The notes: generated by a model from the sequence alone, not told the origin. A stretch of DNA of 32,000 nt from Nitrosopumilus adriaticus (GCF_000956175.1 NZ_CP011070.1:1078147-1110146), one strand, 5' to 3'. Counted from the first letter of the stretch, positions 1,482-17,754 are shown. Made by a program: numbers and translations.

Positions 1482-2411
1482 ATGATACTCAAATGGAATT
1501 GGTCTAAAAACATGGCAAAAAAATCACAGTGGACTGGTGGAATATTAGGAGTTGCACGTTTTTCTTATAGAATAATCGACAATCCGCCAACGTTAAAAAT
1601 CAGATATTCAATGCCTGAAGGATCGGGAATTTGTACTGATGTAAACCATTCCATGATACGTCCTTTTAGAAAAATTCTTAATGATGCAAAATATCCCGGA
1701 AAAATCACATATGTTTTCATTCGTGATGAAAAAAAGTATCATGTACTAGGAGCATTTAGCCATACCAACAGAAACATCATATTTTTCCCTGGTGTGGTAG
1801 ACAAAAGACTTCTCAATTTTGGAGAAGATGAGTTATTATCAAATGGAATTGAAAAACACGTAGATCATTTTACGCTAGAGAATAATTTGGATTCTTGGCA
1901 TGTTACTGTTCAAGAAAAAGAATTTGACGGTACAAGATTCAAATCACAAAAAACAAAAAAAATTGATGAAAATAATTACTTGTGGTTCATTTTCAAGATA
2001 TCTGATTTGAATAAAATGGATTTATTACCAAAAGAATTAAGGTTTGAACTTTATGAGTCTCTTGATGAAATAAAGCGAAGATTGCCAATAATTACAAAGG
2101 CCCGGGAAAATGGAATATTTCAAGTTACAGAATTAAATGATAAAGAAAAAAGTCCTTTTTTTTGGTATGTAGAATTTTTTATTTCAAAATCAAATAAAAA
2201 AGAAGACCATCCTAAATCGCCAGTCATAGTAATGCCTAACAAAGATACAAAAATTTTAGAAGGTAGAAAAAAAGCCATGATGCGTACTCATCAAGTTTTT
2301 TTGGATGGATTTGATGGCTCTGTTTTTGTCCGAGTTTCAAAAGTTCAAGGAACCATTAATAGTCATATAATTTTTGAAAGTGGTCAAAACATAATTCCTA
2401 GCTCTAAATAA
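1482..2411 (+). CDS. hypothetical protein
   Basis: 309-aa ORF tightly following 792..1457. An alternative ATG lies at 1512 (MAKKSQW). No motif recognised. Confidence 0.45.
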   Translation: MILKWNWSKNMAKKSQWTGGILGVARFSYRIIDNPPTLKIRYSMPEGSGICTDVNHSMIRPFRKILNDAKYPGKITYVFIRDEKKYHVLGAFSHTNRNIIFFPGVVDKRLLNFGEDELLSNGIEKHVDHFTLENNLDSWHVTVQEKEFDGTRFKSQKTKKIDENNYLWFIFKISDLNKMDLLPKELRFELYESLDEIKRRLPIITKARENGIFQVTELNDKEKSPFFWYVEFFISKSNKKEDHPKSPVIVMPNKDTKILEGRKKAMMRTHQVFLDGFDGSVFVRVSKVQGTINSHIIFESGQNIIPSSK

Positions 2412-2620
2412 TTTTACTATAAGTTTCTGAAATAATTCAACTGTTGGTTGTGTGGGGCTAAATTCCTTGTCAATTTCATGACCAAAACTTGCAGTCTACC
2501 AATTTGATTTCCGTTTGATCATAGAGATTTGTTATGAGATTATTTTCAAATATGCGTAATTAGCCTCGATATAGATTATTTTAAATTAAAAATCAACTAT
2601 CGATTTAAGAATAATTATCA

Positions 2621-2712
2621 GATACAAGAATAAACAAGAAAAATAAACTCAAGTTTAGAAAAACAAGAATAACACAATAACCAACAACAAGTATTCAAGA
2701 AAAAACAAGACT
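2621..2712. repeat. cluster of ACAAGAA(T)A short direct repeats upstream of 2720..3319
   Basis: ACAAGAA at 2624, 2634 and 2663, with variants TTCAAGAA at 2694 and AACAAGAC at 2704. The region is low-complexity A-rich, so significance is uncertain. Confidence 0.3.
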
Positions 2713-2719
2713 GCAACAA

Positions 2720-3319
2720 ATGAGTAAGACAAAACAAGAAACAGTTCTTAAATTCAGCACAATAGATGAGGCCGAAAAGAAACTCTATGAGATGATAAAA
2801 TCAGGAACAAACTTTCGAGAAATCGCAAAGACTGGCTTTGATATTTCAGGGAACATAAAGCGATACAATCCCTCACAAATCAGCAAAATTAAGGCTAAAT
2901 TTGAGCCTAAATTGCCTGAAAACAATCGAGATCCAGACAAGGCAAAAGTATTTTCATTATTCAAGAAAAACAAGAAACCAACTGATGTAATCATTGAGAC
3001 TGGCCTGAATTACGAATATGTTAAAAAATCATATGAAGAATATTTAGAGTTTGAAGAGAAAATGCTAGTGCCAAAATACTGGATAAATAATTTGGTAAAT
3101 TATGCTGATGGGATATCCGAACAAGTTGGAAAAAACAAACTAGGCCATATTCACTATGCATTATCTGTTGCACATAACTCTCATGTAGAATTACAAAAAC
3201 ACATCTACTATTGCTGTGTATGTGAAGAACAAATTCCAATCAAGGATAAAACATTACAGGCTGCATGTGATTATTTGTCTCAGAAATGGGGGCATGCAGA
3301 ATGTATCAAAAATCAATAA
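2720..3319 (+). CDS. hypothetical protein, possible N-terminal HTH and C-terminal Cys/His cluster
   Basis: 199-aa ORF with ATG start. The C-terminus reads YYCCVCEEQ...ACDYLSQKWGHAEC. First gene of the pPolB-element region. Confidence 0.45.
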   Translation: MSKTKQETVLKFSTIDEAEKKLYEMIKSGTNFREIAKTGFDISGNIKRYNPSQISKIKAKFEPKLPENNRDPDKAKVFSLFKKNKKPTDVIIETGLNYEYVKKSYEEYLEFEEKMLVPKYWINNLVNYADGISEQVGKNKLGHIHYALSVAHNSHVELQKHIYYCCVCEEQIPIKDKTLQAACDYLSQKWGHAECIKNQ

Positions 3320-3320
3320 T

Positions 3321-3881
3321 TTACTTCAGAGTTTTTTGAATTTCTTTATACCATACTGATGATTCATTACTGTATATGCTAGCAAAAATCTCTGACCATT
3401 CGTCGGGTTTTGATTCGTCTGTGAGATATAATTCATAAAATCTATCTTTTAATTTTTCAAATTTTTTTTCAAACTGTTTATTCTTAATAGATGGAAATTG
3501 TTCAAAAAATTCTTTCCAAAAAAGTTCAATTCCCCCAATAACTTTCATAAAAGATGAAAAAGAATTAGCTCGTTGTAGTGCATTAAGCTTAATATTTTTC
3601 TTATCATATAAGTTCAAATGCTCTTCTAGTTTTTTCAATTCATAATCGGATAAAAATGCAATAAGACTTTCAGAAAGTTTAGATGATTTTGTAGCATAAT
3701 GAACATTTTGTTTATCCACTTGTGTCCTAACAACAATTTTATTTTTTACCATTCTTTTCAAAGTTTCTCTGAATGGTCTATCCGAACATGTTTTTGGAAC
3801 AACTAATTTTTTTAATTCTCCCCAACGTAACGAGTTGTGTTTTTTAATTTCCTTGTAAATTGCGTTTTCAATATAATCCAA
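3321..3881 (-). CDS. winged-helix-like transcriptional regulator (tentative)
   Basis: 186-aa ORF with TTG start. The N-terminus (LRWGELKKLV...FRETLKRMVKNKIVVR) looks wHTH-like. It is divergent from the pPolB operon, the same position as 22560..23144 in the casposon. Confidence 0.45.
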   Translation of the reverse strand: MDYIENAIYKEIKKHNSLRWGELKKLVVPKTCSDRPFRETLKRMVKNKIVVRTQVDKQNVHYATKSSKLSESLIAFLSDYELKKLEEHLNLYDKKNIKLNALQRANSFSSFMKVIGGIELFWKEFFEQFPSIKNKQFEKKFEKLKDRFYELYLTDESKPDEWSEIFASIYSNESSVWYKEIQKTLK

Positions 3882-3921
3882 GTACCCCTCTCCTAAGTAC
3901 CCTAGGGTACATAATGTACCC
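3882..3921. promoter_or_regulatory. operator-like cluster of GTACCC half-sites, including the perfect palindrome GTACCCTAGGGTAC
   Basis: GTACCC at 3882 and 3916, and the 14-nt perfect palindrome at 3897..3910. It lies exactly between the divergent genes 3321..3881(-) and 3952..4218(+). TATAAG follows at ~3922. Confidence 0.5.
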
Positions 3922-3951
3922 TATAAGAATACTCCTAACATAGATTATAGT

Positions 3952-4218
3952 ATGAACAAAGTAAAGAATATGCCTAAGACAGGCATAAAAATCTCCAAAA
4001 ACAAGGTTTCCGAGTTTATTGAAACCAAATTTGGATCTAGAGCAGTATCCGATATGAACAAATCTCGAGTCATTGCTCTTCCAAAAGTTGCACTATCAAA
4101 CATGTGTGATAATTCAGAACCTACAAGATTAGAAGTATCTTTAGTTCAAAAACAAGGTGAACAGTTTATCAAGTTATCACCTTGTACATGTGGAAACCCT
4201 AAAGGAGGTAAAAAATGA
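3952..4218 (+). CDS. small DNA-binding protein, AbrB/SpoVT-like (tentative)
   Basis: 88-aa ORF. KSRVIALPKVALSNM...LEVSLVQKQGEQFIKL resembles the swapped-hairpin AbrB/MazE pattern. Its stop overlaps the next gene start (ATGA at 4215..4218). Confidence 0.4.
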   Translation: MNKVKNMPKTGIKISKNKVSEFIETKFGSRAVSDMNKSRVIALPKVALSNMCDNSEPTRLEVSLVQKQGEQFIKLSPCTCGNPKGGKK

Positions 4219-4544
4219 GTCAAACACACACCCCATTTCTTAAATGGGGACAATACATGTCAAAATCTGAAAAAAATCCAGATACGCTACTAGTCAAAGT
4301 TACTGAAACAAATATTTCCAAATCGGAATATTCAGAAAACGTTCCAGCGATAGTAGATGGAGAGGAAAAAATTATTCCTCTACATAGTTTTGAATCTGCA
4401 AACAAAGGGTTGTTAAAACTATGGCTAAAGGCCAAAAACGATGGAAAACTAGTCGTTGGAACAACCTTCAAGATTTTGACATGGATAGGAACTTCAAAAA
4501 AGAATAAAAACAGACCAATAAGACGATTCAGATTCAAATTCTGA
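4215..4544 (+). CDS. conserved pPolB-module protein of unknown function
   Basis: 109 aa. Clear homologue of casposon ORF 22171..22500, which is also 109 aa: shared LPL.S..S.N..LL.LW, F.L.TW.G.SK and RPIRRF near the C-terminus. Same position two genes upstream of pPolB. Confidence 0.7.
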   Translation: MSQTHTPFLKWGQYMSKSEKNPDTLLVKVTETNISKSEYSENVPAIVDGEEKIIPLHSFESANKGLLKLWLKAKNDGKLVVGTTFKILTWIGTSKKNKNRPIRRFRFKF

Positions 4545-4563
4545 ATTTCTTTTCTTTTTTTAG

Positions 4564-4908
4564 GTGATGATAATGATTAATGATAAAAAGAAACTATTAG
4601 AACAGCTTGAAGCACTAAAGTTATTCCCAAATAATAACTTGGTAAAACAATTACGAAAACAAATCAAAACAAAACTAAAGCAATTAGATATAAAAAAATC
4701 AAAACCAGAAATTTCCATTTCAGAAAAACACGCAATTGCTAATGCTAATCGCTCAGCCAAAGTAAAACGAACCTGGAACTATGTAAAACAAATTCAAAAG
4801 AATTTCCCAAATCTCACCATCAAAGAGATACGATCCCAGCTCAAAGTAAGAGCACAAGGACAAAAAACATCAATTCCTGATGCAATATGGCAGAATCCCT
4901 CCCCATAA
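4564..4908 (+). CDS. small, very basic protein overlapping the pPolB start
   Basis: 114 aa. Strong homologue of 21832..22155 (KLLEQLEALKLFPNN, NFPNL, SIPD.IWQNPSP). The 3' end overlaps the pPolB ATG by 22 nt in both elements. Exact start is ambiguous (GTG 4564 / ATG 4567 / ATG 4573). Confidence 0.7.
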   Translation: MMIMINDKKKLLEQLEALKLFPNNNLVKQLRKQIKTKLKQLDIKKSKPEISISEKHAIANANRSAKVKRTWNYVKQIQKNFPNLTIKEIRSQLKVRAQGQKTSIPDAIWQNPSP

Positions 4909-6665
4909 GTGATAGCAAGTCCCTTACAGGATTATACACTACAGGTCATCAAGACAGAAGATATGCCAATTCCAAACTACGCCAAATCTGTGCATTAGAT
5001 ACAGAGACTCATGATGGAGATATTTTCCTAATTGCAGACTCTGAGGGCAATTATTTAGATAAAATCACGCCTAAATCAGTCATAAAATGGCTATTTTCCA
5101 AAAGATATGAAGGAACTTGGAACTTTTTTTACAATCTAACCTTTGATGCAGGAGTAATTTTGAAACTCTTAGGTGAGAATCTAAAGTCATATCTAAAAAC
5201 TAGGTCTCTTGATTTTTCCTTTGAGGGTTATTCCATACAGTACATTCATGGAAAGAAACTTGCAATAAAAAAAGGACATCACAGTACAGTCTTTTTTGAT
5301 ATTGCACAGTTCTATCACATGAAACTAGTTGACGCATATCAATCAAACATTGGCAAATTACCTGAAGAGTATCTAAAAATGAAACAAAAACGCTCACATT
5401 TTACAAAACGGTTCTATAATAGAAACAAACAGCAAGTGAGAAATTATTGTATCACTGATTGTATACTAACTAAAAGACTTGCAGAAAAATGGATTACACT
5501 ATTTCATGATGCATTTGAGTTTTATCCTAATCGATGGATTAGTTCAGGATATCTGGCAGAAAAAGTTTTGATAAATAATGAAATAGATATTCCAAAGTTT
5601 AACACTGTCCCATATAAGATTCAGGAATTAGCATTCAGGTGTTATTTTGGCGGGAGGTTTGAGATGCTAAAGCGAGGATTCATTGGGACAGGATACATCT
5701 ATGATATTAATTCTGCATACCCATATGCACTAACTAAAATCCCGAATCTATCAAAAGGAAGATGGATAAAACGAAAATCAATTCATCCAGATTCAAAACT
5801 AGGCTTCTTTAGAATTAAAGCAGACATTCCTGATCTAAAACATGTTCCACCATTCCCATTTAGAAACAATAACATGATAATTTTCCCCAGTGGAAAGTTT
5901 GAAACATTCTGTACATTACCTGAACTGTTGGCATGTAATGATGAATCCATGTATGAAATCATTGATTCATATCAATTCATTCCAGATGTAGAGGAGTATC
6001 CTTACAAAAATTTCATTACAGAAATGTATCAAAAGAGACTGAAACTAAAACAAGATGGTTCACCATTGCAACTACCAATCAAATTGATTCTAAATTCTAT
6101 TTATGGGAAAACGGGTCAGAGAATTAATCGAAAGATAGGTAATCTGTTTAATCCGATAATATTTTCAGCCATTACTGGCCATGCCCGTGCTCAACTGTAT
6201 GAATTTGTTCAAAAGCACAAAATTGAGCGTGAAATTGTGGCTTTTGCCACTGATTCTGTATGTACAACTAGGAAGATAACCTCTAGCTCAAATGAGCTAG
6301 GGGTCTTTAGTTTGGATAAATCTGGTGATGATGTATTTTTCTTACAAAACGGCATTTACAGAATAAATGGCAAATGGAAGCAGAGAGGATTGGGCCATTT
6401 AGGAACTAAAGAGATTGAGCATCTAGATACGGTGGAAAAAGATGGAAAGTTATTTTACAAGTTCAAAGTGCTTCGAGCAGGTCAATTACGTTCATCTATT
6501 ATTCAAAACAATATTGAAGGAATTGGTAAATTTTCCGAGATAACAAGACAGATTGATCTTAATGCAGATAACAAAAGGATATGGCTTGGAAATTTGAAGA
6601 ATATTGATGAAGAAACTGTAAATTTTTCTATTTCTATTTCTTTAAATCATTTCAAAAATATTTGA
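4887..6665 (+). CDS. polB: protein-primed-type family B DNA polymerase (pPolB), copy 1
   Basis: 592 aa. Exo I ALDTET, Exo II FYNLTFDAGV, Exo III YCITDCIL, motif A YDINSAYPY, motif B LNSIYGKTGQ, motif C FATDSV. Collinear over its full length with 20069..21853. Confidence 0.9.
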   Translation: MAESLPISDSKSLTGLYTTGHQDRRYANSKLRQICALDTETHDGDIFLIADSEGNYLDKITPKSVIKWLFSKRYEGTWNFFYNLTFDAGVILKLLGENLKSYLKTRSLDFSFEGYSIQYIHGKKLAIKKGHHSTVFFDIAQFYHMKLVDAYQSNIGKLPEEYLKMKQKRSHFTKRFYNRNKQQVRNYCITDCILTKRLAEKWITLFHDAFEFYPNRWISSGYLAEKVLINNEIDIPKFNTVPYKIQELAFRCYFGGRFEMLKRGFIGTGYIYDINSAYPYALTKIPNLSKGRWIKRKSIHPDSKLGFFRIKADIPDLKHVPPFPFRNNNMIIFPSGKFETFCTLPELLACNDESMYEIIDSYQFIPDVEEYPYKNFITEMYQKRLKLKQDGSPLQLPIKLILNSIYGKTGQRINRKIGNLFNPIIFSAITGHARAQLYEFVQKHKIEREIVAFATDSVCTTRKITSSSNELGVFSLDKSGDDVFFLQNGIYRINGKWKQRGLGHLGTKEIEHLDTVEKDGKLFYKFKVLRAGQLRSSIIQNNIEGIGKFSEITRQIDLNADNKRIWLGNLKNIDEETVNFSISISLNHFKNI

Positions 6666-6668
6666 AAA

Positions 6669-7472
6669 ATGATGGATAATAGGTGGAAGTATGTCATCAG
6701 CAGTATTGTTTTTATCACCTGTATTGGTATTCTGTATTTTCTATTGACTATTGATTTTCAAGACAATTCATTTATGATCTATCCTATAAATGAAAGCGTC
6801 AAAGTACATCATCTTTTTTTAATTCCTGTTTTAACATATTTTGTTTTTTTCATCGTTTGGATGATTACAAAAAAATATGTTGCAGAATGTCTGGAGAATT
6901 TAATTTACAACTGGCCCAAAAAAGGCCTTATAAAAATAATTGATTCCAATACTAGAGATGATATTATTGGTTTTTTTATTCTTAGTACTGTTATTACAGG
7001 TTTTGTCTGGTATGTGTTAGGGATATCAACCTCAGAAGTGTTTCTTGCGTTAGTCCCATTCACCGAATTAGTTCCAGAACTTTATGTACCATGTGAAGCA
7101 TTGGCTCAAATTTTAGATGATTTTTTTGGGGATATAGAGTATATCCTTTTGTTAATTGGTCCAATTTGGGTATTAATTCTAAAAAGAAGTAGACAGTATG
7201 AAATAAAACATTCTAAGGAAAATAAACAAAGAGGATTTAGAACATTAGTGTTGTTTTTTTGGGCAGCCATAGCATTATTTGCTGCAGATAATAGTTTTGA
7301 ATTAGGATGTGATAATGATAGGCCTCCAGGAATATATCTTCTACCACCATCCCCAGCTTATAATTTGTTAACAGATATGATTTCTGCTCTAATTTATGGG
7401 GGATTAATTACTCTGTTTATTTTTGTGTTAAACAAATATTTTACAAAATGGTTTAACTTAGAAAAAAATTAA
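6669..7472 (+). CDS. multi-pass membrane protein, unknown function
   Basis: 267 aa with several long hydrophobic segments (VISSIVFITCIGILYFLL, LFLIPVLTYFVFFIVWMI, IIGFFILSTVITGFVWYVLGI, YILLLIGPIWVLIL, LVLFFWAAIALFAA, ISALIYGGLITLFIFVL). Confidence 0.6.
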   Translation: MMDNRWKYVISSIVFITCIGILYFLLTIDFQDNSFMIYPINESVKVHHLFLIPVLTYFVFFIVWMITKKYVAECLENLIYNWPKKGLIKIIDSNTRDDIIGFFILSTVITGFVWYVLGISTSEVFLALVPFTELVPELYVPCEALAQILDDFFGDIEYILLLIGPIWVLILKRSRQYEIKHSKENKQRGFRTLVLFFWAAIALFAADNSFELGCDNDRPPGIYLLPPSPAYNLLTDMISALIYGGLITLFIFVLNKYFTKWFNLEKN

Positions 7473-9679
7473 TTTTTAATTTTTGTTTTAATAAATTTCA
7501 TTACTAACTTTATTTCTTTAGGGATTTTATTTTCAGATAGTAGTTCAGTTATATGTTCTGTTGCCCTTAACGGTTTACTGTCTTTAGAAGTTGTACTTGT
7601 TTGTAAAGACCCCTCCAAATCTTTTATCAGAACATACATGTTGTGTTTCCGTGCAATTGTATTTAGTTTTTTTAATAAATTATCATCATACCAATATCTT
7701 GTAATAATTTTATCAGTTCTTGATTTTTCTTTTTTAGGTATGATGGAAGATCTAATTTTTTTAATAAAAGACTTTTCGGATTGTGAAAGTCCTTCTGATT
7801 TCTCTATTGCATTAATTGCAGAAGAGGTAATTACTTCTTGGCCATCTATGAAAATTTTTCTAGTACATTCCATCAAACTATCATAATCCAACACAGAAGT
7901 GTGGGGAATTTTTAGTTTCTTGACTAATTTTAGCAATAATGAAAAAGAATCTTTTCCACCCACATCAAGTATCATCCATTCATTATCTTCTATATTGGGA
8001 CCATCAAGTTGATTATCTGTCAAATATCTATCGGTTTTTTCAATAACGATTTTATCTGAAGGACCTTCAACAAGTACCACTCCATGTTGAAATAATATTG
8101 AGCGTATTTCAGAATTATATAATCTAGTGAGTGTCTTTTCACGTTCATTTGTATTCATAGAATCAATAATTTCTTTCAAATTCACTACGGTTGATCCTGG
8201 TTTTGGAGATGTAATTTTCCATGAGTTCTTAAAATTTTCTGGATTTAGTAAATATGGAGAATGAGTAATCAAGATAACTTGATTTTTGTTCTTTGAAATT
8301 GCTTTTTGTATTAATTGTAATACTCTTCTTTGTAAAATTGAATGTAAATTCAAAGCTGGTTCATCTAATAGAAGTACTTTGTTTTTGTGACCAATTACAG
8401 CTGTTAACAAAATTGCTAATTCAATAATCCCTGCAGCCGCAAATTCAATTGGAATCGGAATGTTGTTTTTTATGACTTGGACATACAAATGATCTTTGAC
8501 AATTTCAATTTCCTCATCAGCCATAGCGATATTTGTAGCATTGTCTAATCTATCAAATTCTTTTTCTAATTCTCGTAAGTGTCGTTTTTTAATTTTGGAT
8601 TTAATTGGTTTAACTTGTACCTCTAACTCTAAACCGTTTGTAATTTTTTTAAATTCATTTGTAACTTCTCTATATTGGGTTTTTAATTTAGGATTATCAC
8701 TATTTGCTAAAGAAAAAAGAATCTTTGCTAAATTTTCACCAGAAATATTTATCATTTCATCAAAATATTGAAGATCTTTGGGACTTTGGATCACTTTTGG
8801 CCTAGCTCTAATATCCGATGTTTTAATTATGGATTTTTTAAAAATATGTGAAACAATGTCTACAAAACTTGCACTCTCATCTTCTGGACTTACTGAGCGA
8901 ATAAAATTCCTTGTTCTGATAAATTCTGGAAATGTCTCCTTGTTAGCTTCAAATTCAGTTAGACGAAAACCTCCAAATTCAGAAGATACGCTATCTTCAG
9001 TAATTTCTAAAATATGATCAAAAACATTGTAAGAGAAATTATCCAAATTGGGTAATTTTTGTTTGATATTTAAAATACAATCATTCAGTTTTGGAATTTC
9101 ATTTCTAGCCTGAGTTAAAATAATATCTGAAATATTTCTAATAGTATGACTGTCTCGTTTTTTTAGATTATTTGTTAATCGATAACTTTGAAAATATAGA
9201 TATTGGTTATTCTTGTTAAATTTAAAATAAATGTCTGGAGGGTAACGTGATTTTCCTTCAGTATCAACAACAATTGTTAGTTCCTCACAAAAATCAGAGA
9301 AAAATTTTTCCCCTTTACCAAGTAAAATTTTTTTAAGAATCTCTAAATTTCGTCTTTGATTTTCCTTTTCTTTAGGCCTAATATCTTGATGAATGATTGC
9401 ACATACAAGAAAATTTAATAAAATCTCTTTTTCTTCTTGATCAAATTTTATGTCGATTTCAATTTCATAAGGTTTCTCAAAATCCAAATTATGATAATAA
9501 GCTTCGGCAGGAACATTTCTTTGATTGATGTGACGTTTAACTAATTCAATTGCCCTAAACACATTAGTTTTTCCAGAATCATTGGGCCCTACAATTGTAT
9601 TTAGATCTGAAAATTCTAATTCCTGCATTTTTGTTCCAAATGATAAAAAATTTTTTAATCGAATTCGAATAATTTGCAT
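7469..9679 (-). CDS. OLD-family nuclease (ABC-type ATPase fused to Toprim)
   Basis: 736 aa. The N-terminus is IRLKNFLSFG...IVGPNDSGKTNVFRAIE (Walker A), followed by Walker B VLLLDEP and ILITHSPYLL. The C-terminal Toprim pattern is GVVLVEGPSDKIVIE ... VLDYDS. This is the architecture of P2 Old, Gabija GajA and fused PARIS AriA-AriB proteins. No helicase partner is present. Confidence 0.75.
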   Translation of the reverse strand: MQIIRIRLKNFLSFGTKMQELEFSDLNTIVGPNDSGKTNVFRAIELVKRHINQRNVPAEAYYHNLDFEKPYEIEIDIKFDQEEKEILLNFLVCAIIHQDIRPKEKENQRRNLEILKKILLGKGEKFFSDFCEELTIVVDTEGKSRYPPDIYFKFNKNNQYLYFQSYRLTNNLKKRDSHTIRNISDIILTQARNEIPKLNDCILNIKQKLPNLDNFSYNVFDHILEITEDSVSSEFGGFRLTEFEANKETFPEFIRTRNFIRSVSPEDESASFVDIVSHIFKKSIIKTSDIRARPKVIQSPKDLQYFDEMINISGENLAKILFSLANSDNPKLKTQYREVTNEFKKITNGLELEVQVKPIKSKIKKRHLRELEKEFDRLDNATNIAMADEEIEIVKDHLYVQVIKNNIPIPIEFAAAGIIELAILLTAVIGHKNKVLLLDEPALNLHSILQRRVLQLIQKAISKNKNQVILITHSPYLLNPENFKNSWKITSPKPGSTVVNLKEIIDSMNTNEREKTLTRLYNSEIRSILFQHGVVLVEGPSDKIVIEKTDRYLTDNQLDGPNIEDNEWMILDVGGKDSFSLLLKLVKKLKIPHTSVLDYDSLMECTRKIFIDGQEVITSSAINAIEKSEGLSQSEKSFIKKIRSSIIPKKEKSRTDKIITRYWYDDNLLKKLNTIARKHNMYVLIKDLEGSLQTSTTSKDSKPLRATEHITELLSENKIPKEIKLVMKFIKTKIKN

Positions 9680-9759
9680 GATTCATAATGTAATATCTAT
9701 GGATTATAACGATTATCTATCTTTAAATTCAATTTTAATAATACCAATAAGAAAATCAT

Positions 9760-10662
9760 ATGTTGCTAAATTATACTATTAATGAATTCTATCCAAAAAG
9801 TAAGATCTGGAAGGATTTTCACGTAGCAAACAGAGGGGGAATTAGACCTAGTATAGATCAAAATTTGGTAGTAGTATTCTTAGATGCACCTAATCCGAAT
9901 CCGAAACCAGGGCAAGATCATAATATCTATCATGATAGATATGATACAACAACTGGTGTTTACTACTATACAGGAAGAGGGCAAGAAGGAGACCAAACTC
10001 CAACGGGTCCAAACAAATGGTTAATTGATTCAAATAAAAATAAAACTACAATTCACCTATTTAGACAATATTCACTTGGTAGTTTACATCAATACATTGG
10101 AAAAGTAAAAGTCGTAAAAGTTGCTCAAGAAACTCAACAAGATCATCGTAAAATAAACCGACTTGTCTATGTATTCTCATTACTACCAGAAGCAGATGCA
10201 ATTGTTACTGAAGAAGATGCATTTCAAAGAGAAATCGATTATCAATTAACTACAACAAAAAAAGAATCCAAAGAACAAATTAAAAAAAATATTGCAAATA
10301 TGGATAAACTTACTACAAAACGAGGTAGTAAAACAAGAACCATTACTGTTAGAACTAAAACTGAACATGTACGATATAGAGGAATTGTTTTAGAATTAAG
10401 AAAATTATTTGATGAAAAATGTCAGATATGTAAAATTCCTCATTTTGAGAAAAAATCGGGCAAATATGCAGAAGTTCATCACATCATTCCCTGGGCTAAA
10501 AGTCATGATGATTCAAGTAAAAATTTGATAGTGATTTGTGCGAATTGTCATAGAAAAATGCATTATGCAAAAGATGTACAAAGAATGAAAATGTATGAAG
10601 AATTAATTCATAATTATCCTAATACATCATATTGTACACCTGATTTTTATAAGAAATACTAA
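9760..10662 (+). CDS. HNH endonuclease with an N-terminal SRA/PUA-like putative modified-DNA reader (type IV restriction-like)
   Basis: 300 aa. The C-terminal HNH motif is CQICK...AEVHHIIPW...SKNLIVICANCHRKMHY. The N-terminal pattern GGIRPS..LVVVF...YYYTGRGQEGDQ..GPNKWL...IHLFRQ...YIGKVKVV resembles SRA-HNH/McrA-type enzymes. The HNH call is firm; the reader domain is tentative. Confidence 0.7.
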   Translation: MLLNYTINEFYPKSKIWKDFHVANRGGIRPSIDQNLVVVFLDAPNPNPKPGQDHNIYHDRYDTTTGVYYYTGRGQEGDQTPTGPNKWLIDSNKNKTTIHLFRQYSLGSLHQYIGKVKVVKVAQETQQDHRKINRLVYVFSLLPEADAIVTEEDAFQREIDYQLTTTKKESKEQIKKNIANMDKLTTKRGSKTRTITVRTKTEHVRYRGIVLELRKLFDEKCQICKIPHFEKKSGKYAEVHHIIPWAKSHDDSSKNLIVICANCHRKMHYAKDVQRMKMYEELIHNYPNTSYCTPDFYKKY

Positions 10663-10712
10663 ACCGTGAGAAAGAAAAGATATGTTGCAGGAATTGAAGA
10701 GAAACTAATGGT

Positions 10713-11711
10713 ATGAAAGAATTAGATAAAAAAACCAATGCACTAAATCAAAGTGGCGCATTTTTACAATTTCATGTATTAAATGAATTAACAAAAAAAC
10801 ATTGGGAAACGACTGTTGAAAAACCGGTTTCTGCAGCACCTTTTTTAACTCATCCAGAAAAACAATCGCTCATATACGCTCATTTGTTGGCAGATCGTAC
10901 AATACCTGCAGATCATTTTGCAAAAGCAATGTCTGATTCACAGTTACTCTCAATGAAACAAGAAACTTCTGTGGATATTGATGCCACAAAAGTAATTCCA
11001 ATTGAATTTGATCCAACTATTGTATTTAGATTATGTGTGGAAGTTAAGAAAAATGATCCTCGTTATAGTGATTGGTGTTTTTTCCAACTAAAACAAAATA
11101 CAGAACCTATGAGGGTAATTTCTAAAAATATTAGAAGAGATGGAAGAATAGAACTTTTCAATATTAGTAAAACAGATAGACATGGAGATCCGATTTTTGT
11201 TCAAACAAACCAGTATCCTCATTGGAGTATTTTCAAACATGACATATCTGATTTTGCTTTGGCATTACAAAATGAGCAGATAAAACCAGAATATTTTCGT
11301 TCTGAGAAAACCAAAGTAGATGAAACCGCTAGGCAAATAATCAAAGGAACTTATGGTTGTATATTGGATGATATAATCAAACAAGTAAGTTCTGGAAATG
11401 GATATTCTAATTCCCCAAATATTTACATCCCAATAATAGTAACAAATGCCAATTTGTATTTGTGTAAATTTGATTTGGAGGATATTGATACTTCGATGGG
11501 TCATATTACTAAAGATCCAAAATATGAAAAAGTGGATTCAATTATTTATGAACACCCCACACCAAAAGAAGTTCAATTCCCTCAACCCCTTTCAAGTAGA
11601 TTAGATGAATATTCAAGAGAACAGATAGCAAAATGGCATGTACTGATATTATCTCCAAAAGGATTCACAGAATTTTTAGAAAATCTTGATAAAATTAAAA
11701 GTATGATATAA
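10713..11711 (+). CDS. hypothetical protein, possible PD-(D/E)xK (restriction-endonuclease-like) fold
   Basis: 332 aa, starting 50 nt downstream of the HNH gene on the same strand. Candidate core is SVDIDAT...FRLCVEVKK after an N-terminal GAFLQFHVLNEL helix. Motif-level guess only. Confidence 0.35.
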   Translation: MKELDKKTNALNQSGAFLQFHVLNELTKKHWETTVEKPVSAAPFLTHPEKQSLIYAHLLADRTIPADHFAKAMSDSQLLSMKQETSVDIDATKVIPIEFDPTIVFRLCVEVKKNDPRYSDWCFFQLKQNTEPMRVISKNIRRDGRIELFNISKTDRHGDPIFVQTNQYPHWSIFKHDISDFALALQNEQIKPEYFRSEKTKVDETARQIIKGTYGCILDDIIKQVSSGNGYSNSPNIYIPIIVTNANLYLCKFDLEDIDTSMGHITKDPKYEKVDSIIYEHPTPKEVQFPQPLSSRLDEYSREQIAKWHVLILSPKGFTEFLENLDKIKSMI

Positions 11712-11863
11712 TTTTTGTTTTAGAGATTTAAATTCTAAATCAGATAGCGTAATTTTTACGATTGCCGTGATAAAATCACTGACAGCAATATTCTCTTATT
11801 TTATTATTTTGTTGTTTTAATTTTTCAACACCATCTAAAATATTATTGAAATTTTAAAAAACC

Positions 11864-12574
11864 ATGGCCAAAATCTATGGTCGGGCAGATACTGAAAAGA
11901 GGCTCTTAGACAAACTTCCCAAAGAAGTCAAATCAATTGATGATATGGATATTGTAAAAAAAGAATTCAAAAAACAATATCATTCCATTGAAGACAAAGG
12001 ATTAATCAATAAATTCTCCAGATGGAGAAAAAAACGACAAATAAATAAAATTCAAAACAACAAGGATACCCCCCTCCATTCAGGCACAAAAGGAGAACTG
12101 CGTGCACTAGATACTCTATCGAAACTTGATGATAATCATCATATTTTCTGCGGTGTTATCATGGAGTTACCTCATTATGTTACATACAATGGTAAAAAGA
12201 ATCTAAAATCTGCTCAAATGGATTTTGTTGTAGTATCAAAGAGAGGAATATTTCCAATCGAAGTCAAAAACTGGACTGATACTTACATTTTCAAACACAG
12301 GGCAAATGGTGGACTAGAACCACATGAGCAAGCAGAACGTGCAGGACGAGTTTTGTGGATTTCTCTCAAATCATGGCGCGATCCAAAACAACCCATGGTT
12401 ACTAGTGTCTTGTTGACCCTTCAAGGAAACATGAAATATAATCCTACATACAAATTTGTTGTAGTAAAAGACTTGATTACAATTAATCAATGGATAGAAA
12501 AACGAAAAGAAATATTCTCAGAAAAAGATGTGCAGAGAATTGTGGACAGAATAAAAGATCATGTTACAAAGTAG
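11864..12574 (+). CDS. NERD-domain (nuclease-related) protein
   Basis: 236 aa. GELRALDTLSKL...IFCGV...QMDFVVVSKRGIFPIEVKNW matches the NERD/PD-(D/E)xK signature. Confidence 0.6.
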   Translation: MAKIYGRADTEKRLLDKLPKEVKSIDDMDIVKKEFKKQYHSIEDKGLINKFSRWRKKRQINKIQNNKDTPLHSGTKGELRALDTLSKLDDNHHIFCGVIMELPHYVTYNGKKNLKSAQMDFVVVSKRGIFPIEVKNWTDTYIFKHRANGGLEPHEQAERAGRVLWISLKSWRDPKQPMVTSVLLTLQGNMKYNPTYKFVVVKDLITINQWIEKRKEIFSEKDVQRIVDRIKDHVTK

Positions 12575-12612
12575 TATTTGTTGATTTTACTTAGTAATAA
12601 TTTATTTTGTTA

Positions 12613-13395
12613 TTATGATTTTTTAAGATTATCGATAAATTTTTGAATTTCAGAATTAAGTAAATTATCCTTGTCAATGAGTTGTTTTCTTTTTAGCAAA
12701 TCTAAGAAAAATGACACTAACATTGGGTCCATATTCGTTTTAGCAATAAGTTGTCCTTTTGTTGTTTTTCCATCATATACATATTTTAGAATAATTGCTT
12801 CAAAAATGGTAGTAGTACGCATTGCAAATTCGTCTTTAATGAATTCTTTAATTTCCTCACTAAACTCTGGTTTTTCAATATCTCTATAGAAAATTTTTGC
12901 ACCCAAAATATTATACAGAAAGATTACCGGATAATACAAAATCCAAACAAAGAATCCACTAGTAATTAATATCATTACTAAAAATATAGTAGAAATTCTT
13001 TGGATTTCAGATAATTGATAAATATATGCTGAATGATTTTCAGATGTTATCGTTGCTTCTTTTATCTTCACGTTAGCGATATCAGAATTAATTGTACATT
13101 TTAGATTTGGAGACATTCTATCAAATTCAATTAGATGCCTATTTTCACCAAGTGAAGAAATTGTTCCCTCTATGCAGTTTTGTAAAGTGATATTTGCAGT
13201 ATTGTTGAGAGTCACAAAAGCTTTAACATTTGATGCCTGAATCAATCCAAAATTGTTTAGGGTGATAGATGATTCAGAAATTAAATCATCAGAAATTTCA
13301 AAATGAACTAAAATTTCATTCATAAAATTCCCTTGTGCAATAACTAATGAAATAATTGTAATAATTATGGTAATTGCAAATTTTGTATTATCCAA
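12613..13395 (-). CDS. membrane-anchored protein with a C-terminal wHTH-like segment
   Basis: 260 aa. N-terminal TM (FAITIIITIISLVIA), central TM pair (TIFLVMILITSGFFVWILYYPVIFLY). C-terminus is ILKYVYDGKTTKGQLIAKTNMDPMLVSFFLDLLKRKQLI. Confidence 0.5.
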   Translation of the reverse strand: MDNTKFAITIIITIISLVIAQGNFMNEILVHFEISDDLISESSITLNNFGLIQASNVKAFVTLNNTANITLQNCIEGTISSLGENRHLIEFDRMSPNLKCTINSDIANVKIKEATITSENHSAYIYQLSEIQRISTIFLVMILITSGFFVWILYYPVIFLYNILGAKIFYRDIEKPEFSEEIKEFIKDEFAMRTTTIFEAIILKYVYDGKTTKGQLIAKTNMDPMLVSFFLDLLKRKQLIDKDNLLNSEIQKFIDNLKKS

Positions 13396-13452
13396 TAATC
13401 ATCAGAATAATTATATAAATTTAAGAGTGTTTTATGCCAGAATCATCAGAAC

Positions 13453-13896
13453 TTATGGATGATCATTGTCGATATAATCTAAAGATTTTTCTTTAACAAT
13501 TTTACCAGAACCGTGGCATTTTCTGCGTTCTCTCTTGTGGTATAGTAATCTCATGGTAGTAATTGTAGTACTTTTTGTTACAGGTATATGAAAACCATTA
13601 TTTCGAGAATTACTCCTTACAATAAAAGCTGAAACTTTACGTTTACAATAATGACATCTTGTTTTTCTTACTTTATCACTAGGATGCCAAATATGCATAA
13701 TCATACTAGAGCCTGATTTTATGCATTTTCTACTAAAAAAGCCCTCTTTTTTGTGATGCTCAAGTTTGATTGTTTTGTTAATCTTTGTACCTTTGATACT
13801 TGTGGTGCCAAGAGATTCTGAAAGTACCTCTGCTTTGATTTTCTTTTTACATCTAGTACACTTTACTGTCTCAGTTTTGATTCCTATCTGAACCAC
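13453..13896 (-). CDS. basic protein with two tandem CxxC...HHK...C-x-x-SG zinc-ribbon-like modules
   Basis: 147 aa. Module 1 is CTRCKKK...LEHHKKEGFFSRKCIKSGS; module 2 is CHYCKRK...LLYHKRERRKCHGSGK. The same module occurs once in casposon ORF 17755..17955. Confidence 0.55.
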   Translation of the reverse strand: MVQIGIKTETVKCTRCKKKIKAEVLSESLGTTSIKGTKINKTIKLEHHKKEGFFSRKCIKSGSSMIMHIWHPSDKVRKTRCHYCKRKVSAFIVRSNSRNNGFHIPVTKSTTITTMRLLYHKRERRKCHGSGKIVKEKSLDYIDNDHP

Positions 13897-13984
13897 AATT
13901 CCGATGAGAAATACATCTTGATAAAGAATTTTGAGAATTTTTAGAACTTATGGGGAGTATCTTATTTTTACGAGTGATTTTGAA

Positions 13985-15328
13985 TTATTTTCTTCTTTCA
14001 AATTTTCTTTTCAATCCAACAAATGCAGAACCTAAAATTGGGATGCTGAGTACTCTCTCTAAAACATCTAACAAACCTTCAGATCTAGGAAATAGGAAAA
14101 ATGCAGATAGACTATCTGTAACTCTGCCCACTAAATGACATTCATCAGAAACAGCACAATATCCTGTATAGTTACGCAATACAAGAAATGATAAAATCAA
14201 TACAGGTGCCCAAACTGCTAATGGAAGAAAATAACTTTCACTATACAATGACAAATATTTATGAATAGAATACATGATAGAAGATAATTTCTCACGAACA
14301 GACCCCTTTTGAAGTCCTTTTTTTAAACACTCTAATTCACCTATGAAAAAATTAGATGCTTCAGTAAATCGCAATCTTGTTTCGTAATTTTTTCTTAATT
14401 GCGCATAAATATCTGATACATCATCATAATTTTTATTTTTTTCAAGCATTAATTCATTGATTATTACTTTACGCCACATTCGCTTGGGTGACAACCACTT
14501 TACATTGTTAAATTCAAAATTTTGTAAGTTTACACCTAAAAATGAAACTCCTTCCAAAACAACTGGTTCATTCACCTTCCCAGATACACGAACTCTTTGA
14601 CGCATTGTTGAAAAATCAAAGTTAATAGGGATTTCATAACCCAGGGTTTTGATTTTTGCAGTATTTATTTTAGGAAATTTCATGTACGCTAGATCTAATT
14701 CACCATGAAAATCAACATATGAAAAATTGGCATTAATGAATTCTCCTCTAGACAAATTTGTTGCCCCTTCAAAACTTGCAGATGAAAAATTAATTCTATC
14801 ATGACATCTCATTCCAGGCATAAATGAAGATTGTGCAAATTTTGCACTCGAAAAATTCCCCCATTGCAAAAATATGCTTTCATAAAAATTTGCACCCATG
14901 CGAAATTTACTACCTACAAAAATCGCATCTTCCTTAAAGGTAGTTTTGAAAAAAATAGGAGTCTCAGAAAAATCACAAAACTGAAAATTTACTACTTTTT
15001 CAAATGTTGTATAATAGAAACTAGTTATAGTTGTAAAATACACATTAGCAAAATCTACGGCTTCTTCAAAATATGCAAATTCACAATGAATCTCCGCATG
15101 AATAATTTCTGGCCATTCAAACAGCGGAATATGAAAACCTACTAAATACAATGGACGGTGTTGTTCTAGTTGCTCTTTTATCATATCTCTAACTTGACTG
15201 TCGTGACTTTGTTTGCGTTCTTTCCAAAAAGTAGGATGATGAAATTTACAAAAACCACTATGATCAAATTCTTCATAGGGACAATCATAAGTTCCAGAGA
15301 ATAATTTTGCATTATATGAACAGCCCAT
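13985..15328 (-). CDS. pentapeptide-repeat protein with an N-terminal Cys/His cluster and C-terminal membrane helices
   Basis: 447 aa. N-terminus has CPYEEFDHSGFCKFHHP. A long central tract has pentapeptide-type repeats (FSSASFEGATNLSRGEFINANFSYVDFHGELDLAYMKF). The C-terminus is hydrophobic (LPLAVWAPVLILSFLVL, SIPILGSAFVGL). Confidence 0.65.
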   Translation of the reverse strand: MGCSYNAKLFSGTYDCPYEEFDHSGFCKFHHPTFWKERKQSHDSQVRDMIKEQLEQHRPLYLVGFHIPLFEWPEIIHAEIHCEFAYFEEAVDFANVYFTTITSFYYTTFEKVVNFQFCDFSETPIFFKTTFKEDAIFVGSKFRMGANFYESIFLQWGNFSSAKFAQSSFMPGMRCHDRINFSSASFEGATNLSRGEFINANFSYVDFHGELDLAYMKFPKINTAKIKTLGYEIPINFDFSTMRQRVRVSGKVNEPVVLEGVSFLGVNLQNFEFNNVKWLSPKRMWRKVIINELMLEKNKNYDDVSDIYAQLRKNYETRLRFTEASNFFIGELECLKKGLQKGSVREKLSSIMYSIHKYLSLYSESYFLPLAVWAPVLILSFLVLRNYTGYCAVSDECHLVGRVTDSLSAFFLFPRSEGLLDVLERVLSIPILGSAFVGLKRKFERRK

Positions 15329-15371
15329 AATTCAATTGGGAATTATGAACATAATAAAGTACTTTACGACA

Positions 15372-15394
15372 ACTGTCATAATTTCATTCGTAAA
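15372..15394 (+). repeat. direct repeat copy 1 (ACTGTCATAATTTCATTCGTAAA), left of the tRNA-integrase pair
   Basis: 22/23 identical to 16845..16867, with the single mismatch C/T at 15385/16858. Confidence 0.7.
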
Positions 15395-15479
15395 AAGGAA
15401 TTGAATCATTCTTTGAAAAATAATTTGATTTAGATCGTGTTATAACATTTAATTTCCCAAATTTTCTGACTAATATTAT

Positions 15480-15594
15480 GCCGGGGTAGCTCAGCCTGGT
15501 TAGAGTGCCAGTTCGCTTGGTAATCTCTAACGGTTCTCCAACTAAGGCAATACTCATAATCTGGAGGTCGTGGGTTCGAAACCCACCCCCGGCA
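15480..15594 (+). tRNA. tRNA with anticodon CAU (elongator Met or Ile2) containing a 40-nt intron (15512..15551) in the anticodon stem
   Basis: Hand-folded cloverleaf. Acceptor GCCGGGG/CCCCGGC, D arm GCTC-AGCCTGGTTA-GAGT, anticodon arm CCAG^A-CTCATAA-TCTGG (anticodon 15555..15557), variable loop AGGTC, T arm GTGGG-TTCGAAA-CCCAC, discriminator A. G1:C72 argues against an archaeal initiator. The fold only works after removing 15512..15551. Confidence 0.85.
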
Positions 15595-15602
15595 TTACAG
15601 CC

Positions 15603-15609
15603 TTTTTTT
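15603..15609 (+). terminator. T7 run downstream of the tRNA (archaeal oligo-T terminator candidate)
   Basis: TTTTTTT begins 9 nt after the tRNA discriminator base. It overlaps the stop codon region of the convergent integrase gene. Confidence 0.4.
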
Positions 15610-16780
15610 ATATCAAATAGTAAGAAATAGACAGATTTTTTGAGATATTCCCAAAGATCTGAGAATTATTAATGACTGATTTTAGAGACAATGCCTTGCC
15701 ACATTTCCAACAATTATTTTGTTCAGGATTATTTTGCATCTCACAGATACTACATTTTATTGGCGAACCTCTACTTTCTGCCCTTGATAATCCATAATAT
15801 TTTGTCATTGCATTATCGACATCTTTGTGAGTGAGATGAACATATCTTCCAGGGACTTTGGAATATGAACTCCATCCATGTCTGTCTCTCATTTGCGCAT
15901 CTGTCAAATAATTTGCAGCATCAGTTGCAGCTGAATGTCTAAACAAATTCAAATTAATTGGTTTTTTCAGTTTTGCAATCCTTGCTCTTCTTTTTATCAT
16001 GGCGTTAGCTGCTGCATGAGTCATAGAATCTCCAAAATTTCTCTTACTTGTTTTAATCCAAAGTGGTGCATCATAATTGTCTCTTAATGGATGAACGTTA
16101 AGCCAAGATGACAATGAGGGTCCAGACTTTATTAGACGAACAATCCTCGTCCCAGTCTTTCCACTTACTTGGATTAGTGCGCCAAGATTATCAAAGTGTA
16201 CATGATGAATCTGCAAATTAAGAATCTCTGCAGGTCTGGTTCCTGCTTCTAAATGACAGTCAATGAATGCTCTGTCACGTAAATTCCCATTACATGCATC
16301 AAGTAGTTTCAGTCTATCTTTTTGTGAAATCAGGTCTTTTCTTGCAAGTTTGTTGAATACTAGATGAGTTCTAATCTGTTTTGTTTCAGGTGGGTCACCA
16401 ACTTCGATGTAACTTCGGGACCCGAGTTTGAACCATCTAAAAAATATCCGTAACATCTTTTTATGATCATACGAATAAAATGTCTCTTTGCCTAGTTTGT
16501 CACAGAATTTTTTTGAAATCTGCAATGCAATTTTTCGAATGTCTGATTTTGTGGCATCTTTCCAGTCTTTTTTGAGCATTTTGCTAAGGGTCAGAATTGT
16601 TTGTAGTTGTTTGACTTGGGTGGCTTTAGCAAGGGATTGAATAATCATCTCTTGGTGATATTTGCTAATGAGTTTTTGATTATTTTGAGATAATTCTTTT
16701 TTGATTTTGTTTTGTATTCTTTTGATTTGAGTGTTGTAATAGTGTGATACTTGGTCTTGCGCTAGTTCATATTTTTGCAA
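15608..16780 (-). CDS. int: tyrosine recombinase/integrase with a C-terminal zinc ribbon
   Basis: 390 aa. Catalytic pattern: AGTRPAEIL (Arg), GKTGTR hairpin (Lys), LFRHSAAT (Arg-His), RHGWSS, and the nucleophile Tyr in PGRYVHL. The C-terminus has CSICEMQ...CWKCGK. The gene appears intact. The track start is TTG, so the true start is uncertain. Confidence 0.85.
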   Translation of the reverse strand: MQKYELAQDQVSHYYNTQIKRIQNKIKKELSQNNQKLISKYHQEMIIQSLAKATQVKQLQTILTLSKMLKKDWKDATKSDIRKIALQISKKFCDKLGKETFYSYDHKKMLRIFFRWFKLGSRSYIEVGDPPETKQIRTHLVFNKLARKDLISQKDRLKLLDACNGNLRDRAFIDCHLEAGTRPAEILNLQIHHVHFDNLGALIQVSGKTGTRIVRLIKSGPSLSSWLNVHPLRDNYDAPLWIKTSKRNFGDSMTHAAANAMIKRRARIAKLKKPINLNLFRHSAATDAANYLTDAQMRDRHGWSSYSKVPGRYVHLTHKDVDNAMTKYYGLSRAESRGSPIKCSICEMQNNPEQNNCWKCGKALSLKSVINNSQIFGNISKNLSISYYLI

Positions 16781-16844
16781 TGAGGGAATTATTGTTTTTG
16801 GGATTAATAAGAAGGATGTTCGGTGCCGCCCCTTTTTCTAGTAT

Positions 16845-16867
16845 ACTGTCATAATTTTATTCGTAAA
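16845..16867 (+). repeat. direct repeat copy 2 (ACTGTCATAATTTTATTCGTAAA), right of the tRNA-integrase pair
   Basis: 22/23 identical to 15372..15394. It runs directly into the casposon-like terminus. Confidence 0.7.
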
Positions 16868-16881
16868 CGGGGGGCTCTGCC
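16861..16881. repeat. casposon-like right terminus of the Cas1-less element (TCGTAAACGGGGGGCTCTGCC)
   Basis: GTAAACGGGGGGC (13 nt) is identical to the casposon right TIR at 29979..29991. Both G6 cores are followed by 6-7 nt and then the same T5-ACTCTTTATCAATAAA repeat. I noticed G6/C6 runs elsewhere only in the casposon TIRs (16912..16917, 29985..29990) and as a C7 run at ~12069 inside the NERD gene. Confidence 0.65.
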
Positions 16882-16902
16882 TTTTTACTCTTTATCAATA
16901 AA
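16882..16902 (+). repeat. target-site-derived direct repeat, middle copy (TTTTTACTCTTTATCAATAAA)
   Basis: 21/21 identical to 29998..30018, which is the stop codon plus last five codons (FIDKE*) of aEF-2 on the minus strand. The true duplication is 13-21 bp, depending on how the flanking A/T runs are assigned. Confidence 0.9.
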
Positions 16903-16949
16903 AATAGAATGCCCCCCGTTTACTCGTAAATTTAGACGGTAGACTAGGA
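16903..16949 (+). repeat. casposon left terminal inverted repeat
   Basis: AATAGAATGCCCCCCGTTTACTCGTAAATTTAGACG is the exact reverse complement of 29964..29999 (39 nt if the ambiguous A run from 16900 is included). It continues to 16949 with two mismatches (16939, 16942). Confidence 0.95.
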
Positions 16950-17727: not shown

Positions 17728-17754
17728 TTGATTCAGAAACTCATTTAATGAAAT

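Follow-up and report, generated by a model that had tools for sequence, protein, structure and literature searches.

What are four consecutive nuclease-type genes doing in the cargo of an archaeal mobile element? The question is raised by a 32,000-nucleotide stretch of the Nitrosopumilus adriaticus genome (NZ_CP011070.1, 1078147–1110146; hereafter ‘the window’, with positions counted from its first letter), in which genes for an OLD-family protein, an HNH protein, a 332-amino-acid (332-aa) protein, and a NERD-domain protein follow one another inside the casposon NitNF5-C1. We favor, with moderate confidence, the reading that these are four separately acquired and independently acting anti-foreign-DNA nuclease modules carried as cargo of NitNF5-C1, not one system. 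The observed integrity of the four genes, their domain identities and catalytic motifs, their location in the element, and the lack of conserved linkage between them underlie this reading; by analogy with other mobile elements, the locus is most likely a small defense island carried by a casposon.

The open reading frames (ORFs) of the window correspond one-to-one to the NitNF5-C1 gene table for CP011070 with a constant offset (window = genome − 1,078,146), and the 332-aa, HNH, and OLD proteins have counterparts of 100% identity in Nitrosopumilus adriaticus. The element itself is not new: Krupovic et al. (2019, Environ Microbiol; PMC6563490) described NitNF5-C1, a family-1 casposon of Ca. Nitrosopumilus adriaticus NF5, at genome positions 1075658..1095033, equivalent to −2488..16887 in the window. 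An earlier interpretation, made from the DNA alone and referred to here as the sequence-only reading, took the four genes for cargo of a self-replicating archaeal element, and they do map onto the published NitNF5-C1 gene table (Table 1). The same interpretation called the element Cas1-less, and here it was misled by the edge of the window. The published Cas1 gene (WP_048116294, genome 1076285..1077298) converts to about −1861..−848, ending ~0.85 kb to the left of position 1; thus, ‘Cas1-less’ is a truncation artifact. Other features of a family-1 casposon are present in the window, namely pPolB, the right terminal inverted repeat (TIR), and the target-site duplication (TSD) at the 3′ end of ef-2. 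According to PMC6563490, NitNF5-C1 is the largest casposon identified, codes for a XerC-like recombinase, and is inserted in ef-2 in tandem with a second casposon, NitNF5-C2. The paper also lists the OLD, NERD, and HNH nucleases as novelties among family-1 casposons, specific to NitNF5-C1 and not common to the others. The novelty implied by the sequence-only reading had, therefore, been preempted in 2019: neither the element nor the OLD, HNH, and NERD nucleases are new to the literature, and the locus is largely known.

ORF calling recovered all four genes at the positions, strands, and lengths first proposed for them. Intergenic gaps in the order OLD/HNH/332-aa/NERD are 80, 50, and 152 nt, and the GC content is uniform, at ~30%, over the cargo region. 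The Toprim, HNH, and NERD assignments, on which the sequence-only reading had staked its case beforehand, all pass profile searches. Four consecutive ORFs with intact nuclease motifs in one cargo region are, in our judgment, not a chance ORF pattern.

In the OLD protein, an ABC-type ATPase interrupted by a long insertion forms the N-terminal part, and a Toprim domain the C-terminal part. Its identification as an ATPase-Toprim protein is borne out by Pfam (AAA_15, 4.6e-18; AAA_21, 2.2e-17; OLD-like_TOPRIM, 2.1e-12, residues 529–600), by PADLOC (top model ‘Old’, 5.5e-27), and by the only sequence match in the PDB, the OLD-family endonuclease chain 6P74 (2.6e-13). The motifs of both domains are intact, with Walker A (GPNDSGKT, residue 31) and Walker B (VLLLDEP, residue 435) in the ATPase, and the Glu motif (VLVEGPSD, residue 535) and DxD motif (DYD, residue 598) in the Toprim domain. 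The gene is flanked by a convergent gene for a 267-aa predicted membrane protein and by the divergent HNH gene; neither flanking ORF has a helicase domain, PADLOC returned no match to GajB, and among the NitNF5-C1 ORFs inside the window, none contains a helicase or a reverse transcriptase domain. The initial remark that OLD lacks the UvrD-like partner of Gabija is correct, and since no UvrD-like gene adjoins OLD, the locus is not Gabija. The OLD gene stands alone, without a helicase, retron, or split-Toprim partner, an arrangement that corresponds to Class 1 of the OLD class scheme.

The HNH protein consists of an SRA-like domain (~residues 1–145), a helical linker, and an HNH domain with a Cys4 zinc site (residues 221–268). 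Evidence for the nuclease domain is direct: Pfam HNH matches residues 221–268 at 6.1e-11, and the CxxC...HH...CxxCH pattern is present as CQIC, HH, and CANCH (C221/C224, H240/H241, and C260/C263-H264). The HNH part alone is also what matches the PADLOC model mREase_IV (9.4e-11) and, in a PDB sequence comparison, EcoKMcrA (6GHC; 9.9e-10). The SRA-like domain, suspected from the outset, was assigned by a precomputed Pfam match and a fold search. The precomputed record holds PF26348 and PF01844, and PF26348 is named SRA_ScoMcrA in the tables of homologues. With the AlphaFold2 model (predicted local distance difference test (pLDDT) 80), Foldseek retrieved full-length ScoMcrA (5ZMM; 2.4e-12) and its SBD-SRA fragment (5ZMN; 8.4e-7), the SRA domains of plant SUVH5 (1.7e-5; TM score 0.72) and human UHRF2, the SRA-like domains of AspBHI and MspJI, and, for the HNH part, EcoKMcrA. 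A PDB profile search using the sequence of the N-terminal domain gave no significant match (E = 2.1), and that alignment falls on the same two motif regions of the ScoMcrA SRA domain. As modeled, the 300-aa protein combines SRA and HNH domains in the manner of type IV, modification-dependent enzymes, ScoMcrA being the nearest match, an assignment that goes beyond PMC6563490.

Four genomic contexts of SRA-HNH homologues were sequenced far enough to be inspected (L012, L013, L036, and L035, the last being short). In three of the three with usable flanks, the relatives (44–47% identical to the window protein) are linked to orthologous C5 cytosine methyltransferases, which are 44–72% identical to each other; a HhH-GPD (Mig-like) glycosylase is also encoded in L012 and L036. 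There is no C5 methyltransferase in the window. A nuclease of the 5-methylcytosine (5mC)-reader type linked to a 5mC writer is unexpected, and its repeated occurrence could reflect a non-canonical cooperation of the writer and the SRA-type nuclease. As separate observations, the homologues P0040 and P0043 have an extra N-terminal domain of ~150 aa, for which no Pfam match was found in P0040, the one scanned, and L012 contains Helicase_C, MZB/DUF1998, and PLD genes, which we take to resemble a DISARM class 2 set.

The NERD protein matches Pfam NERD over residues 73–170 at 1.7e-12, scoring 48.3 bits against a gathering cut-off of 22.1, and contains a D120 and E133-V-K135 core; with the profile above the gathering score and the D...ExK core in place, the original call stands. 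PMC6563490 describes this protein as ‘related to Holliday junction resolvases’.

The fourth protein, 332 amino acids long, has no match in Pfam, PADLOC, or NCBIfam. Of the 37 homologues retrieved from a collection clustered at 90%, only two are named in their source, and both are called ‘hypothetical protein’. The D...E-x-K core that had been proposed as a possibility for this protein is strongly conserved: D88, E110, and K112 are invariant in 34 homologues, as are G15, Q19, E36, E84, D203, Q208, and a ‘PIIVTNANL’ strand. In 67 distant members, D88 is invariant and K112 is at least 90% conserved; these proteins are ~300 aa long, retain the D, ExK, Q, and ‘IVTTANL’ motifs, and likewise have no Pfam domains. 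The AlphaFold2 model (pLDDT 90.3; predicted TM score 0.90) places D88 and E110-V-K112 on the hairpin strands 83–97 and 100–112, following an N-terminal helix, and adds a beta-rich insertion at about residues 120–190 and a C-terminal domain, the extra domains making up about two thirds of the protein. A Foldseek search of this model against the PDB and viral models gave no significant match. Several PD-(D/E)xK nucleases are among its weak top matches: AF1548 (1Y88), R2 RLE domains, Avs3, NotI, phage nucleases, and UL24. PDB profile searches with two family alignments (A1 and A5) yielded no annotation, and hhalign of the family against the window NERD protein found nothing. We regard the protein as a member of a large, stand-alone family, predicted from its conserved residues to be PD-(D/E)xK-like, which is without a match in Pfam, PADLOC, or NCBIfam and was not recognized in PMC6563490.

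This family is widespread. A profile search of 1.84 billion cluster representatives (50% identity) retrieved 964 proteins at E ≤ 1e-3, of which 253 reach E ≤ 1e-10 and 36 reach E ≤ 1e-30. In addition to the Nitrosopumilales, a genome scan with a tighter alignment (A6) placed members in Acidobacteriota, Chloroflexota, Cyanobacteria (e.g., Tolypothrix tenuis PCC 7101), Patescibacteria, Burkholderiales, Acidiferrobacterales, and a Woesearchaeota archaeon. A tblastn search of the bacterial member P0133 against plasmid and phage collections found nothing, nor did a scan of viral contigs with alignment A1. The distribution is patchy and horizontally spread, and the gene is always single, often in integrated elements or beside known defense genes.

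We compared gene neighborhoods in eight distinct thaumarchaeal contexts of the 332-aa gene (L001–L011) and at 18 bacterial loci, taking the two nearest genes on each side of the latter (66 flanking proteins). In the eight thaumarchaeal contexts, tblastn found no counterpart of the window OLD, HNH, or NERD proteins. An all-against-all BLAST of the neighbors from thaumarchaeal and bacterial loci revealed no recurrent neighbor of the family; the Pfam families listed among the 66 bacterial neighbors occur in one member each, and no HNH Pfam domain is listed among them. Seen from the other side, no 332-aa, OLD, or NERD homologue occurs in the sequenced SRA-HNH contexts (L012, L013, and L036, plus the short L035). 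Two other ideas were considered and rejected. One is that the 332-aa gene encodes a type II restriction enzyme: a DNA methyltransferase is only one of the 66 neighbors at the 18 bacterial loci, and none is listed beside the thaumarchaeal homologues. The other is tandem paralogy in L011.

The thaumarchaeal neighborhoods are rich in integrases and defense-type genes, the latter including AbiEi/AbiEii, an OLD nuclease, a HEPN protein, and SLFN/AlbA_2, together with ABC-ATPase/Lamassu-like proteins and ThiF with DUF2604. In L007 (5142..15566), a DUF2604-ThiF set lies on one side of the 332-aa homologue, and on the other are genes for HD_assoc_2, DUF6036, and a 639-aa OLD nuclease; the surroundings look like a dense defense island. 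The metagenomic contig L009 (2..4203) encodes a pPolB 63% identical to that of the window, two small ORFs, a 332-aa homologue 74% identical to ours and located 1.2 kb downstream of the pPolB gene, and, after it, a 311-aa ORF without annotation. The contig has the look of a further pPolB element in which the same cargo gene keeps different company. Because the 332-aa gene of L009 sits downstream of pPolB with different neighbors, this position suggests a recurring, variable cargo slot. A search of viral contigs for related pPolB elements, made for the comparison of cargo, returned nothing.

In general terms, the function of the locus can be pictured as follows. The cargo occupies the variable stretch that separates pPolB from the right end of NitNF5-C1. 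In the OLD protein, ATP binding and hydrolysis by the ABC-type ATPase would control a Toprim nuclease that nicks or degrades DNA. The SRA-like domain of the SRA-HNH protein would flip a modified cytosine into its pocket, and dimeric HNH domains would then cut nearby, as in the type IV enzymes TagI, ScoA3IV, and ScoMcrA. The 332-aa protein would use a metal-dependent, PD-(D/E)xK-like active site (D88, E110, and K112), with its extra beta-rich and C-terminal domains probably selecting the substrate, and the NERD protein may constitute a fourth nuclease module. The role of all four is most likely an attack on incoming foreign DNA, such as viruses or rival mobile elements, which would be of advantage to host and resident casposon alike. 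PADLOC defense models match two of the four proteins (Old for the OLD protein and mREase_IV, i.e., type IV restriction, through the HNH part of the other), and both pipolins (PMC11551731) and Tn7-like transposons (PMC8649781) carry defense cargo. What survives of the candidate defense island in the sequence-only reading is the island, as a plausible reading; the suggested two-gene unit does not.

Several points speak against this picture of four modules. Nuclease activity, modification dependence, and a defense role of the four genes are all inferred from sequence. PADLOC has no model for NERD-only proteins or for the 332-aa family, and a defense role of these two is predicted only. The bacterial relatives of the 332-aa gene often lie among housekeeping genes. 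Lastly, the linkage of its relatives to C5 methyltransferases misfits a simple 5mC-dependent type IV enzyme, which leaves the real specificity of the SRA-HNH protein uncertain.

A more ambitious proposal has two separate parts: that the 332-aa family is a new single-gene system against viruses or mobile genetic elements, e.g., a novel modification-dependent or structure-sensing nuclease, and that SRA-HNH nucleases of the subfamily found here cooperate with C5 methyltransferases. We offer this pair jointly and as a tentative possibility.

Among the rival explanations, the one that fares best holds that the four genes are weapons or addiction modules in a conflict between elements, excluding or degrading rival elements, NitNF5-C2 among them, or stabilizing NitNF5-C1 in the chromosome, and do not protect the host from viruses. 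Two diverged casposons do share one target site, each with its own set of nucleases, and P2 Old was discovered through the interference between two phages. The ‘guns-for-hire’ concept is also invoked in PMC6563490. Yet both casposons coexist in tandem, and no antitoxin or immunity partner is evident. We consider this explanation unlikely, with the qualification that its mechanism overlaps that of the four independent modules favored here, the target alone being different.

Somewhat less probable still is a role of the nucleases in the casposon life cycle, in end processing, excision, resolution of intermediates of replication or recombination, or target nicking, rather than in defense. The four genes sit between polymerase and integrase, family-2 casposons have a conserved HNH nuclease, and PMC6563490, besides relating NERD to Holliday junction resolvases, considers that Cas4 homologues of NitNF5-C2 may act in integration. 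Against such a role, the nucleases are specific to this element, as noted above; OLD, HNH, and NERD are missing from both NitNF5-C2 and the pPolB element of L009; 332-aa homologues are mostly found outside pPolB elements; and an SRA modified-base reader fused to HNH is the architecture of a restriction enzyme.

Decay of the four genes into non-functional cargo would be compatible with the integrated state of the element, and the SRA-HNH gene no longer has the methyltransferase found beside its relatives, but all four ORFs are full length compared to their homologues and every catalytic motif is intact, making this explanation very improbable. Least credible of all is a dedicated two-gene system of the HNH and 332-aa genes, proposed by the sequence-only reading for two genes on the same strand 50 nt apart, because their lack of co-occurrence, the result it had itself chosen beforehand to decide the matter, is seen from either side (eight thaumarchaeal contexts, 18 bacterial loci, and the sequenced HNH contexts), and the 332-aa gene of L009 (74% identical), likewise in a pPolB element, has other genes around it.

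Table 1. Features of the window and related loci. Positions are window coordinates unless a locus is named; genome coordinates and arCOG assignments are from PMC6563490.
Feature	Position	Strand	Genome position	Basis
NitNF5-C1, in-window part	1..16887	.		PMC6563490 supplement gene coordinates mapped with offset 1,078,146
pPolB of NitNF5-C1	4887..6665	+		Pfam DNA_pol_B_2 3.3e-25; published annotation; cargo begins downstream
OLD-family ATP-dependent nuclease, 736 aa	7469..9679	-	1085615..1087825	Pfam, PADLOC, PDB, motifs; arCOG03235
SRA-HNH endonuclease (predicted), 300 aa	9760..10662	+	1087906..1088808	Pfam, Foldseek, PADLOC; arCOG09398
Stand-alone 332-aa protein, PD-(D/E)xK-like core (published as hypothetical)	10713..11711	+	1088859..1089857	Conservation, AlphaFold2 model
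NERD-domain protein, predicted PD-(D/E)xK-type nuclease, 236 aa	11864..12574	+	1090010..1090720	Pfam; arCOG06670
XerC-like tyrosine recombinase, NitNF5-C1 right end	15608..16780	-		Pfam Phage_integrase 1.2e-13; arCOG01242
Right TIR of NitNF5-C1 (end 16887), then TSD common with NitNF5-C2	16846..16902	.		Repeat families D4, I3, I6
NitNF5-C2, family-1 casposon	16894..30008	.		Published
NitNF5-C2 pPolB	20069..21853	-		61% identical to NitNF5-C1 pPolB
NitNF5-C2 Mrr_N protein (Mrr-type, type IV-like)	23148..24224			PADLOC mREase_IV 4.1e-13
NitNF5-C2 N6/N4 DNA methyltransferase	24358..25200
NitNF5-C2 Csa1/Cas4-like nuclease	25621..26244
NitNF5-C2 AAA ATPase	27024..28202
NitNF5-C2 Cas1	28576..29631	-		2.3e-47
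SRA-HNH relative contexts	L012 8125..10957; L013 124..2322; L036 53..5891

The boundary between the two casposons can be read directly. The right TIR and TSD sequence of NitNF5-C1 agrees with Table S2 of PMC6563490, and 16846..16938 is a palindromic junction at which NitNF5-C1 ends with its right TIR and NitNF5-C2 begins with its left, the two sharing a single TSD (TTTTTACTCTTTATCAATAAA). The left TIR of NitNF5-C1 falls outside the window. The motif GTAAACGGGGGGC occurs three times, compared to 0.05 expected, and a third copy of the repeat, at 29961..30018, lies over the stop codon of ef-2 (30001..31923), which NitNF5-C2 adjoins. Sequence likeness between the two elements extends to the DNA just upstream of both pPolB genes (repeat pairs I2 and I4). 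NitNF5-C1 combines two unrelated integrases in one casposon, Cas1 and the XerC-like enzyme by the right TIR; an integrase 30% identical to the latter is encoded 1.3 kb upstream of the 332-aa homologue in L004.

The rest of the NitNF5-C1 cargo includes a 447-aa protein (13985..15328, minus strand) with pentapeptide repeats (Pentapeptide_3, 2e-13) and a hydrophobic C-terminus. Its neighbors are a Cys-rich 147-aa ORF (13453..13896) and a 260-aa ORF with hydrophobic stretches (12613..13395); none of the three has a PADLOC match. NitNF5-C2 has its own, separate nuclease and modification cargo. A 35-nt, partly palindromic repeat (AAATAGCTACAAAAGCTAATTGTAGCTATTTGTAG) is present three times in 19659..19855, with spacings of 85 and 77 nt, in the intergenic DNA downstream of the NitNF5-C2 pPolB gene, and may be a regulatory or replication-related site.

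The locus indicates that casposons of ammonia-oxidizing archaea, globally important nitrifiers whose defense against viruses has barely been studied, carry blocks of defense-type nucleases as cargo, a pattern comparable to that of pipolins, Tn7-like transposons, and the phage or satellite hotspots of bacteria. Since the element and all of the nucleases but the 332-aa protein have been reported before, little is left to be gained here: the reinterpretation of the HNH gene as encoding a predicted SRA-HNH type IV enzyme, which can be tested with modified DNA, and the 332-aa gene as an entry to a widespread, stand-alone, nuclease-like family, the only part worth experimental follow-up.

How does this locus compare with known systems? 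The published account of NitNF5-C1 (PMC6563490) covers the same locus and gives OLD, HNH, NERD, pPolB, Cas1, and the XerC-like integrase. It differs from the present analysis in that the 332-aa gene appears as a ‘hypothetical protein’, the SRA domain is unnamed, and the four genes are not treated as a defense cluster. Among OLD-type systems, the ATPase and Toprim regions of the window protein match the PADLOC models of GajA from Gabija (GajA-GajB) and AriA from PARIS (AriA-AriB), the AriA matches being confined to the ATPase part. Gabija, however, has an adjacent UvrD-like GajB, for which neither the flanking ORFs nor PADLOC provide a candidate here, and in PARIS, AriA and AriB are separate genes, whereas the window protein fuses ATPase and Toprim in one chain of 736 aa. 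Closer is the stand-alone OLD represented by phage P2 Old and PDB 6P74, with an ABC-ATPase and Toprim in one polypeptide encoded by a single gene. Unlike these, the window OLD is longer, has a large insertion in the ATPase domain, is archaeal, and is known here from its sequence alone.

The SRA-HNH protein resembles TagI, ScoA3IV, and TbiR51I, which are SRA-HNH modification-dependent endonucleases (PMC6212794, PMC4333417), as well as the SRA-HNH core of ScoMcrA, in having an N-terminal SRA-like domain and a C-terminal HNH with a zinc site. ScoMcrA also has sulfur-binding and head domains, both missing from the window protein, whose sequence does not significantly resemble solved SRA domains (E = 2.1, as above) and whose close relatives are linked to C5 methyltransferases. 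The 332-aa protein shares with the PD-(D/E)xK superfamily (AF1548, PDB 1Y88; R2 RLE) the conserved D...E-x-K on a hairpin after an N-terminal helix, and is set apart from described families by its extra domains and by the lack of a significant sequence or fold match. At the level of the whole element, NitNF5-C1 is like pipolins (PMC11551731) and Tn7-like transposons (PMC8649781), mobile elements that likewise bring their own polymerase or transposase together with a variable block of defense-type genes; it differs in being a casposon with a Cas1 integrase, in having an ammonia-oxidizing archaeon as its host, and in that its defense function is predicted from the genes.

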